28,902 nt of DNA from Candidatus Zixiibacteriota bacterium (lineage in GTDB: Bacteria; Zixibacteria; MSB-5A5; UBA10806; 4484-95). The notes under the pieces were generated by a model that searched no databases, was not told the origin of the DNA, and saw only the letters and a program-made list of their open reading frames with translations. Positions 4,190 to 19,498 of this stretch are shown one piece after another. The position numbers were made by a program, and so were the translations under genes. The stretch spans positions 1-28,902 of the forward strand of contig JAOZPT010000031.1 of NCBI GenBank assembly GCA_029932605.1, in the 5' to 3' direction. The number at the start of each line of letters is the position of its first letter. The first letter of the stretch is position 1.

Positions 4190-4228
4190 TTGCACAGAGT
4201 GTGAAGCATTTTGCACAATAATGGTGTT
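4190..4228 (+). promoter_or_regulatory. Possible enhancer (UAS) for an NtrC-family activator
   Basis: TTGCACA repeated at 4190 and 4211 (21 bp apart). 4212-4228 TGCACAATAATGGTGTT resembles the NtrC site TGCACCA-N3-TGGTGCA; lies ~150 bp upstream of a sigma54 start. Confidence 0.35.
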
Positions 4229-4352: not shown

Positions 4353-4368
4353 GGGCATAGTATTTGCT
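4353..4368 (+). promoter_or_regulatory. sigma54 promoter of the lipoate ligase-family gene
   Basis: GGGCAT-AGTAT-TTGCT with GG-N10-GC spacing; predicted start ~4379, ATG at 4399. Confidence 0.55.
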
Positions 4369-4398: not shown

Positions 4399-5196
4399 AT
4401 GAATATTTTAAGATTTATCGATGATTTACCCAGACATGGGGCATTGAACATGGCATTGGACAACGCACTCGCTTTTTATACCGGAAAACAAAACTCGTTA
4501 GTGGTGTTGCGTCTTTATAGCTGGATCAAACCTACGTTAAGTTGTGGCTTTCATCAAAAGGTTGAAAAGAGGGTCGATTTTGAAAGTTGTCAGCGGTATG
4601 GAGTTGACGTTGTTAGGCGTCCTACTGGAGGAAGAGAGCTTTTACATAATGGGGATTTGAGTTTCAGCGTTTCCAGTCAACTAAGGGATGTTGATTTTCG
4701 TGTTGGAGAGATTTTTTTTAATGTTTGCCATGTCATTACCCAATCTCTGAAGGAACTGGGAATCAAGGTGTTGATAAAATCGGGGGAAAAAAAGGGGAGA
4801 AGCAATAGATTAATGCCTTGTTTAGCCAGCCCTTCTCAATATGAAATTTTGTGTAATGGTAAAAAAATAGTACCAATGGCACAGAGGATTTTTCAACATT
4901 CTGTTTTAGTGCATGGCTCGATACCTCTTAGCGATTCCAAAATTCCCGTTGCCAGGTTGTTGAGAGTATCAGATACCGAGTGGTTGCAGCGGCAAATCGA
5001 CGAATCATCCACTAGTCTGAATCGGATTCTAAATAAAGATGTTGATATTAGAAAATTAAAAATGCACCTGTGGCAAAATTTCCAGAATATATACGGAGGC
5101 ACTATAAAAAATCAGCCTTTTTCTGAAGGTGAGGTAACTGAGGCTAAAGCGATGGCTAGAAGATGGGAATGTAGAATGTTGGAGAAAGCTCCATAG
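4399..5196 (+). CDS. Lipoate-protein ligase A family protein (LipM-like octanoyltransferase)
   Basis: 'GALNMALDNAL', 'LRLYSWIKPTLSCG', 'VVRRPTGGRELLH', 'CLASPSQYEI...GKKI..AQR...VLVHGSIPL'. Catalytic domain only. Confidence 0.88.
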   Translation: MNILRFIDDLPRHGALNMALDNALAFYTGKQNSLVVLRLYSWIKPTLSCGFHQKVEKRVDFESCQRYGVDVVRRPTGGRELLHNGDLSFSVSSQLRDVDFRVGEIFFNVCHVITQSLKELGIKVLIKSGEKKGRSNRLMPCLASPSQYEILCNGKKIVPMAQRIFQHSVLVHGSIPLSDSKIPVARLLRVSDTEWLQRQIDESSTSLNRILNKDVDIRKLKMHLWQNFQNIYGGTIKNQPFSEGEVTEAKAMARRWECRMLEKAP

Positions 5197-7134: not shown

Positions 7135-7170
7135 AACGGTCGGGTTTTAAAGCCCGACCGTTTTTTTCTT
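7135..7170 (+). terminator. Rho-independent terminator
   Basis: AACGGTCGGG-TTTTAAAG-CCCGACCGTT followed by TTTTTCTT, 28 nt after the stop at 7106. Confidence 0.9.
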
Positions 7171-7301
7171 TTGATTAACTATAAATCCAATCATAATTAT
7201 TGCATTTGGGGTTATTTAAATTATGAATTAGATTGCATATCACATTAAAAACCGTCTTATATTTTTTGTTAGAAATAATTCATACATTGATAATAATTTG
7301 T

Positions 7302-7314
7302 TAACCTTTTGATA
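7302..7314 (-). promoter_or_regulatory. IHF binding site
   Basis: Minus strand TATCAA-AAGG-TTA matches the consensus WATCARNNNNTTR, ~60 bp upstream of a sigma54 -24 box. Confidence 0.45.
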
Positions 7315-7373
7315 TAAAAACATATGAAGGGTCTTACATGTTACTTTGCATGCTTAGAACAAATTGATTGTTC

Positions 7374-7389
7374 TGGCATACATATTGCA
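7374..7389 (+). promoter_or_regulatory. sigma54 (-24/-12) promoter
   Basis: TGGCAT-ACATA-TTGCA; predicted start ~7400. Confidence 0.7.
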
Positions 7390-7424
7390 ATTTATAATCA
7401 GTGGTTTTTAGGGTTAAGTAAATT

Positions 7425-7501
7425 GCATGGGAGTGGTGAGTGCTGGAAATATCCAGCCACCCCGAATGATTCGGGGCATCCCCCCTCCGCCACTCCCGTG
7501 C
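7425..7501 (+). ncRNA. Unidentified structured RNA (three-way junction); sRNA or 5' leader
   Basis: 14-bp closing stem 7425-7438/7488-7501 with two U-G wobbles (plus-strand specific). Inner hairpins GCTGGA-AATA-TCCAGC (7442-7457) and CCCCGAA-TGA-TTCGGGG (7460-7476). GC-rich island in an AT-rich spacer. Confidence 0.65.
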
Positions 7502-7520
7502 TAAATCTGATGAGGGAACG

Positions 7521-7625
7521 ATGGTCAGTTTTAATGAAGACAAAATAGTCAAACCAAGGCCAATTTTTTTATATGCTTTTGTTTTGATTGCATTATTAGC
7601 TGCGATTGTTTTAATCCCGATATAA
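7521..7625 (+). CDS. Small single-pass membrane protein, 34 aa (not in ORF track)
   Basis: MVSFNEDKIVKPRPIFLYAFVLIALLAAIVLIPI*; GAGG at 7512-7515, 5 nt before ATG; charged N-terminus then ~20 apolar residues. Confidence 0.6.
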   Translation: MVSFNEDKIVKPRPIFLYAFVLIALLAAIVLIPI

Positions 7626-19482: not shown

Positions 19483-19498
19483 GGCAAAGTCGATGCCT
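19483..19498 (-). promoter_or_regulatory. sigma54 promoter of the PilX-like gene
   Basis: Minus strand AGGCAT-CGACT-TTGCC with GG-N10-GC spacing; predicted start ~19472. Confidence 0.55.

Follow-up and report, generated by a model that had tools for sequence, protein, structure and literature searches.

A sigma-54-type RNA unit with a predicted exposed C-rich strand, conserved across most of an uncultured bacterial phylum

The spacer upstream of uvrC in the stretch of DNA analysed here (28,902 nucleotides, hereafter the window) carries a structured RNA element behind sigma-54 promoter signals. A covariance model of the element matched 127 of the 151 genomes of the phylum, which is likely Zixibacteria, and true second copies were present in seven of them. 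By analogy with characterised RNAs, we give slightly better than even chances to the reading that it is an enhancer-activated, Hfq-independent trans-acting sRNA, the C-rich strand of which would pair with G-rich ribosome-binding sites. The initial annotation had proposed a self-contained sigma-54 unit of no known family, consisting of an IHF site, a promoter, a folded RNA and a small ORF behind a terminator; all of these were found at the positions given there, and the enhancer that such a promoter requires, absent from that annotation, was also present and conserved (7222-7239). The features of the unit are as follows.

7135..7170, plus strand: intrinsic terminator of the upstream secreted-protein gene, a 12-pair stem (7135-7162) plus U tail, insulating the RNA unit
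7222..7239, no strand assigned: palindromic site resembling an enhancer, with the consensus TnTGCAA-N4-TTGCAnA; its centre lies 144 nt upstream of the GG of the -24 element
7302..7314, minus strand: IHF consensus site between enhancer and promoter, exact consensus match
7374..7389, plus strand: sigma-54 -24/-12 promoter motif TGGCAT-N5-TTGCA, predicted start at about 7400
7400..7424, plus strand: predicted 5' leader, varying in length and sequence across the phylum, its start deduced from the promoter
7425..7438, plus strand: closing helix P1, 5' strand, with 7 of 12 pairs invariant in 47 alignment rows
7442..7457, plus strand: inner hairpin P2, with 3 of 5 pairs changed on both sides
7460..7476, plus strand: inner hairpin P3, with 4 of 7 pairs changed on both sides
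7477..7487, plus strand: unpaired, anti-Shine-Dalgarno-like C-rich strand CAUCCCCCCUC, running on into the CC of P1
7488..7501, plus strand: closing helix P1, 3' strand, pairing with 7425-7438
7512..7516, plus strand: GAGGG resembling a Shine-Dalgarno sequence, in front of the small ORF; most homologous ORFs likewise follow a purine-rich stretch
7521..7625, plus strand: predicted 34-aa single-pass membrane protein, order-specific and of no known family

Fold and conserved core of the RNA

The segment 7425-7505 folds at a predicted -46.8 kcal/mol (z -7.62), and none of 200 shuffled sequences folded as well, bearing out the earlier description of a GC-rich folded element. The fold alignment of 47 rows had 92% of its cells paired, and 11 of the 24 pairs were changed on both sides, a count inflated by kinship among the rows. 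The covariation score was 0.276 compared with 0.144 in shuffled alignments and at most 0.05 when the partners were slid; lineages that differ in register may account for part of the covariation in P3. The plus strand was indicated by G-U pairs at two positions (in 14 and 26 rows).

The three-way junction that the initial annotation had described is the usual form of the RNA. It is not an essential one, because one family has exchanged P2 and P3 for a single long irregular hairpin while retaining P1 and the C-rich strand. As the inner hairpins are replaceable and these two parts stay, the functional core is the closing helix P1 with the C-rich bulge AUCCCCC(C)UCC. The mean predicted probability of being unpaired was 0.91-0.99 for the AUCCCCC(C)UC strand over 102 copies, with a C run of 5 or 6 nucleotides. 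Its invariance is circular for the copies from the genome-collection scan, which used the C-run pattern, and also holds in 30 loci found without that pattern. The predicted structure thereby displays the conserved unpaired C-rich motif of the C/U-rich, Hfq-independent sRNAs, and this strand is likely the working surface of the RNA. A run of at least four U followed P1 in 74 of the 102 copies; none occurs at this point in the window.

Several paralogous copies (L160, L161, L162, L163, L164, L168 and L169) lie behind other hairpin-rich sequence without a sigma-54 promoter, and in three of them (L160, L168 and L169) a second C-rich loop is borne by an extra long terminator hairpin. A tandem pair of paralogous copies was seen in one genome.

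Distribution in the phylum

Of the 102 distinct copies, 47 went into the covariance model; the sister family's rows were largely excluded, as the aligner had shifted P2. Conservation in relatives, on which the initial annotation had made its proposal depend, was evident from the model matches and from a DNA search of 41 genomes, which detected the element in all nine genomes of the family, all 14 of the sister family and 10 of 17 others. A pattern scan of the genome collection returned at least 121 matching stretches. The model found no match in four families (0/11, 0/3, 0/2 and 0/1) and a few scattered genomes; in the 24 model-negative genomes, matches to the motif pattern were at chance level except for one divergent copy, in G039. 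Outside the phylum, among the hits listed, the model matched none of five genomes of other phyla with pattern hits, and one hit on a viral contig was, by eye, without the promoter and the inner hairpins.

The absence of a known family was upheld by Rfam 15, which gave no match in the window at the gathering score, none over 7425-7501 at E values up to 10 and none in 20 homologous loci at E values up to 0.5. A dispersed repeat was rejected, the element being single-copy in the genome. In the literature library searched, we found no paper on regulatory RNA, sRNAs or RpoN in Zixibacteria, although the RNA may be listed in the supplement of a motif screen. As a separate observation, a helical-repeat protein of 700-880 aa (G000:C24:16570; L304-L333), searched with one query, was not found in f10 (0/8), f14 and G079, all of which also lack the RNA; this may only reflect distance.

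Promoter, IHF site and enhancer

The sigma-54 promoter of the initial annotation is shared by most copies of the RNA. The motif GGY-N7-TTGC stood no more than 100 nt upstream in 88 of the 102 distinct copies, its background frequency being 0.014 per 100 nt, and the -24/-12 motif was present in 30 of 30 loci retrieved by plain DNA similarity. The rpoN gene was detected in 151 of 151 genomes of the phylum. The segment at 7302-7314 matches WATCAR-N4-TTR, which we take to be the IHF consensus, and is weak when taken alone (P 0.066 in the shuffled 203-nt spacer). The assignment gained support from the homologous promoters, 10 of 87 of which had exact IHF sites upstream compared with 0.9 expected. 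The genome encodes an IHF-like protein scoring below the NCBIfam cut-offs. The gene upstream of the unit, from which the terminator separates it, encodes a Por_Secre_tail domain.

The enhancer was detected by a spaced-word search of the upstream regions with no motif set beforehand. Its dyad GCA-N6-TGC occurred in 16 of 24 upstream regions of the own order and 34 of 65 others, where about one was expected, with the palindrome centre at a median of -146. A matrix trained only on the 65 loci of other orders placed all 24 own-order loci above the shuffle threshold. The site at 7222-7239 is thus predicted to bind a sigma-54 activator. Enhancers 80-150 bp upstream with IHF-assisted looping are described as the textbook sigma-54 layout (PMC4987338), and every part of such a unit could be recognised in the sequence: the -24/-12 motif, the enhancer, the IHF site, rpoN and the 11-12 sigma-54 activators encoded in the genome.

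Identification with an NtrC site was rejected, as the half-site spacing is unlike that of TGCACC-W4-TGGTGCA as given in the same account (PMC4987338). Membership of a flagellar regulon was likewise rejected, since 12 other sigma-54-like promoters, three of them in the flagellar cluster, did not exceed the enhancer threshold. A response regulator (G000:C59) was considered as the cognate activator; the palindrome lies upstream of its gene, but the protein is without a recognisable GAFTGA motif and a clear ortholog was not found in the G067 stretches searched. The window also encodes an HTH-WYL-WCX regulator (657-1577) and contains two more intergenic sigma-54-like motifs, both on the minus strand (453-468 and 19483-19498).

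Candidate genes sharing the enhancer

In this genome, a sigma-54 motif was located 100-190 nt downstream of 8 of 14 intergenic high-scoring palindromes and of none of five coding ones. Besides the RNA itself, the resulting set contains a second sRNA of the C/U-rich type, a lipoate-ligase-like gene (also in the window), a secreted subtilase, two paralogs of no Pfam family, a sugar-transferase region and one more gene; palindromes with slightly lower scores were found at a GGDEF-like gene and a polysaccharide export gene. This composition suggests an envelope or secretion programme; the set is drawn from this genome, and just one more ortholog pair has the palindrome in common with G067.

Some of these loci deserve description. 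The lipoate-ligase-like gene at 4399 of the window is preceded by a palindrome (4200-4217) and a sigma-54 motif (4353-4368). The paralogous proteins of no Pfam family (G000:C30:1389-1853 and C89:20069-20443; L453 and L454) appear RNase H-like by eye, and each of their genes follows an enhancer and a sigma-54 promoter. The second sigma-54 sRNA candidate (G000:C18:6256-6500; L334 and L336-L350) has the same enhancer as that at 7222-7239 and a terminator hairpin, the C/U-rich loop of which is almost invariant, in a RepG-like layout; it was present in all nine genomes of the family and, in the sister family, in 6 of 14, with no Rfam match. A third candidate of about 70 nt (G000:C13:26144, minus strand; L351) has a sigma-54 motif, a short C/U-rich single strand and a strong terminator, and is without the enhancer.

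Comparison with known RNAs

The closest parallels include sX13 of Xanthomonas, RepG of Helicobacter and CJnc190 of Campylobacter. By the cited accounts, sX13 and RepG have the UCCCCCU loop motif in common and sX13 works without Hfq (PMC3771888), and CJnc190 represses a ribosome-binding site that is rich in G in a host lacking Hfq (PMC8687705). The RNA described here resembles all three in its predicted size of about 100 nt, in the exposed UCCCCCU-type motif, in that Hfq is not needed or not found, and in the pairing with G-rich ribosome-binding sites, which is a prediction in our case (PMC3771888, PMC8687705). It differs in that the motif lies in a junction or bulge beside the closing helix, whereas theirs is in a hairpin loop in these descriptions, and in being without sequence or Rfam similarity to them, under sigma-54 enhancer control and phylum-wide.

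NfeR1 (alpha-r14, or cuckoo) is likewise a stand-alone, Hfq-independent gene with an ultraconserved unpaired anti-Shine-Dalgarno motif (PMC10746234). As described there, NfeR1 consists of three hairpins each with CCUCCUCCC, with variable stems and no sigma-54 signature (PMC10746234), whereas our RNA has one motif and a near-invariant helix. Membership of the Cuckoo/alpha-r14 family, requiring at least two hairpins with CCUCCUCCC loops, was rejected on account of the single junction motif and the lack of an Rfam match.

Among sigma-54-dependent sRNAs, GlmY/GlmZ are likewise stand-alone sRNAs expressed from a sigma-54 promoter with an IHF site and an enhancer, as described in PMC3045617; here, by comparison, neither an Rfam match nor RapZ nor Hfq was found. 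In Qrr1-5 of Vibrio, an activator at a TTGCA/TGCAA palindrome similarly turns on an sRNA as a repressing arm (PMC11443567). The LuxO site given there is TTGCA-W3-TGCAA, compared with which our half-sites stand 3 bp further apart, and the Qrr RNAs are stated to need Hfq (PMC11443567). CJnc230/FlmE of Campylobacter is an RpoN-dependent sRNA with a single-stranded anti-Shine-Dalgarno sequence between stems (PMC11187230). According to that source it is flagellar and processed from the flgE mRNA (PMC11187230), whereas the present RNA is a separate gene, the enhancer of which is absent from the flagellar-cluster promoters tested.

Search for targets and a possible role as a protein decoy

Hfq was not found in any of 101 genomes, and the 16S anti-Shine-Dalgarno sequence had the standard form GGAUCACCUCC in three of five genomes where it was found. 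The best target lead is cvpA, a lead with evidence against it. GGAGGGG precedes its start in nine of nine genomes of the order, compared with 10 of 2033 starts in this genome, and the C-rich strand is predicted to form a 7-8 bp duplex with the cvpA leader (-15 to -18 kcal/mol). The site does not track the RNA, however, being G-rich in only 9 of the 19 genomes of other orders that carry the RNA, and also in five of seven loci from RNA-negative genomes; it could be explained by other C-rich sRNAs or by simple tuning of translation. In the rpsU-yqeY-cvpA-mutS2 operon (L406-L449; genes named by sequence resemblance, and cvpA from Pfam), G-rich ribosome-binding sites are conserved at cvpA and often at rpsU.

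Broader screens gave no conserved target. A two-genome screen against G067, covering 2.0 of its 2.12 Mb and missing cvpA, shared three top-ranked targets where 2.4 were expected among 952 ortholog pairs. In the phylum scan for GGAGGGGG-N1-8-ATG, no gene save cvpA recurred across families by eye in about 150 of some 800 rows. The top of the single-genome ranking, yceD, was discarded as its site lies inside the coding region, a HEAT-repeat candidate as it was not conserved in 30 orthologous loci, and pairing with rRNA as the best G067 16S/23S sites were weaker than many chance sites.

Some bacterial sRNAs act by titrating proteins, as GlmY does with RapZ and CsrB with CsrA. The RNA may accordingly be read as a decoy or scaffold, in which the invariant P1 and the C-rich bulge bind a conserved protein, possibly mimicking the 3' end of 16S rRNA; we regard this as unlikely, although it is the alternative that survives best. 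Both strands of the near-invariant P1 are conserved phylum-wide, which fits protein recognition better than seed pairing. A swappable interior around 7 of 12 invariant P1 pairs, the lack of a conserved mRNA target in the screens and a hairpin followed by AUC-C-CCUCC that resembles the 16S end all point the same way, as does the presence of csrA in 151 of 151 genomes. Control by sigma-54 and IHF is the pattern reported for GlmY (PMC3045617). Against a decoy stand the C run, which varies between 5 and 6, and the C-rich loops of known sRNAs, which pair with RNA. A CsrA sponge is further opposed by the sole constant GGA, which lies inside P1 and not in a loop, the multiple loop GGA motifs of the CsrB/RsmZ type being absent from the alignment. 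RapZ was not found in this 99.96% complete genome (0/1) and there was no Rfam match, so a GlmY-type decoy was rejected; Ro60 (TROVE) was found in none of five genomes, which also disposed of a Y RNA. We know of no counterpart of the C-rich strand in GlmY/GlmZ. With csrA universal among these genomes and Hfq not found, it may be rewarding to look for an RNA or protein that antagonises CsrA.

An extended version appears improbable to us. It holds that the phylum-ancient sigma-54 RNA mimics the 16S 3' end with its helix and C-rich bulge as a general decoy, either sequestering a factor of ribosome biogenesis or of initiation or masking strong Shine-Dalgarno sequences wholesale, and would thus throttle translation while one conserved enhancer-binding protein drives an attached, secreting state; one order would then have recruited a membrane micro-protein onto the transcript.

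Genomic neighbours

The neighbours of the RNA, labelled partly by eye, vary by lineage and include uvrC, a membrane protein with a trxB-like gene upstream, others and convergent genes, and several loci finish in a separate terminator. In this order the RNA mostly keeps its place ahead of uvrC (22 loci). The association with uvrC appears to be one of position, because uvrC has its own sigma-70-like promoter (in 10 of 23 loci, compared with 0.8 expected) and the neighbours differ across the phylum. Promoter, enhancer, U run and changing neighbours together describe, at the sequence level, a stand-alone transcription unit. In many of the loci L031-L151, P1 is followed after 36-66 nt by a GCCGATA-like box, which precedes a conserved membrane-protein gene and resembles a sigma-28 -10 element.

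These surroundings bear on whether the RNA is a cis-acting attenuator or riboswitch-like leader, terminating at P1 and the U run unless a ligand or RNA opens it and so controlling the gene behind, here that of the peptide. The U run that directly follows P1 in most copies, and that in this order stands shortly before the Shine-Dalgarno sequence of the ORF (18 of 24 loci), would suit such a device. Yet the downstream genes are unrelated across lineages, sometimes convergent or past a separate terminator, and tend to have promoters of their own, either sigma-70-like as before uvrC or with the GCCGATA-like box elsewhere; no alternative fold was seen. We therefore hold little hope for this explanation.

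Descent from or mimicry of tRNA-Leu is less probable still. The idea stems from 10 nt on the 5' side and 12 nt on the 3' side that the RNA has in common, in the same order, with the tRNA-Leu(CAG) of the genome. Scored as the best of all tRNAs, such likeness barely stood out from dinucleotide shuffles or not at all (19, 200 and 9 of 300), and where tRNA-Leu(CAG) differs at these stretches, in G067, G120 and G052, the RNA does not follow. It has no T loop, its CCA lies in P1 and changes with its partner, and ARAGORN finds nothing. A tRNA or tmRNA was rejected in general, there being no cloverleaf with a T loop and a free 3' CCA and the genome having its own tmRNA, and a retron msr-msd since a linked reverse transcriptase was found in none of five genomes and the neighbours were likewise without one.

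A small membrane protein gene added in one order

The 34-aa ORF, with the translation originally reported, has homologues of 34-36 codons in its order, starting 22-54 nt past P1 (23 loci, one locus cut by N being excluded). They end in a hydrophobic helix with a conserved proline and a peak hydropathy of 2.3-3.2. The pN/pS ratio was 0.33 and 0.51 in two families, with changes mostly at third positions. This substitution pattern indicates that the ORF is under purifying selection and is a real, order-specific small membrane protein. In a profile search every one of the 24 genomes of the order had it, without exception at the RNA locus, and 17 genomes outside gave no significant match. Of 11 examined among 27 profile matches, 10 belonged to the same family and one was an unrelated repeat protein. 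The peptide has no Pfam or NCBIfam family at cut-off; its exact sequence was absent from the collection searched, and the Atlas matches were all below 0.9.

The RNA occurs without the ORF in every order except this one. As the ORF is confined to one order and the RNA is phylum-wide, the RNA is the older, stand-alone unit and not a toxin leader. The proposal that it is the structured leader of a peptide or type I toxin mRNA consequently found no support, and the Shine-Dalgarno sequence of the ORF was not specially complementary to the RNA either (median percentile 0.26). The dual-function sRNA suggested at the same time fits this one order, if both parts are expressed.

A type I toxin-antitoxin pair, in which the peptide is the toxin and the structure a translation-blocking leader, is the least credible of the alternatives. 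Membrane toxins of this type are described as small with one hydrophobic helix (PMC8309996), and the 34-aa peptide with its single hydrophobic helix has that form; one of 22 members matched PepG1 at a non-significant E value of 0.014. The RNA is, however, far wider and older than the ORF, single-copy, vertically inherited and mostly fixed before uvrC, and the peptide has no conserved cationic C-terminus. Motif scanning and folding revealed neither a sequestered Shine-Dalgarno sequence nor a sign of the antisense RNA that the initial annotation had thought worth seeking (no conserved antisense promoter; 2 of 23 loci compared with 0.6 expected); a trans-encoded antitoxin may exist.

Proposed function and significance

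We favour the enhancer-activated, trans-acting sRNA, drawing on the conservation of promoter, IHF site and enhancer, the covarying fold, the exposed C-rich strand, the independence from neighbours and the failure to find Hfq. The sigma-54 promoter, IHF site and palindromic enhancer would produce an RNA of about 100 nt. Acting in trans and without Hfq, it would pair through its unpaired C-rich strand with G-rich ribosome-binding sites and likely block translation of the messages bearing them. One enhancer-binding protein would switch it on along with the other palindrome genes, here the secreted subtilase, the sugar transferase, the second C/U-rich sRNA and, more weakly, the polysaccharide export protein. 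The RNA would give a repressing arm to an activator able only to switch genes on. P1 and the U run probably end most transcripts, and in this order read-through may also yield the small membrane protein, giving a dual-function transcript.

The RNA thus appears to work like the known kind of C/U-rich sRNA while being a member of no known family, from which its scaffold, its breadth and the added peptide set it apart. Base-pairing sRNAs seldom extend beyond a single family or order, and here an RNA, its promoter and its enhancer are kept across most of an uncultured phylum. The unit would place a C-rich seed on a new scaffold under an uncatalogued sigma-54 enhancer with its own regulon, and it is short enough to be amenable to E. 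coli reporters. It also offers a case in which a non-coding RNA gained a small-protein gene in one order.
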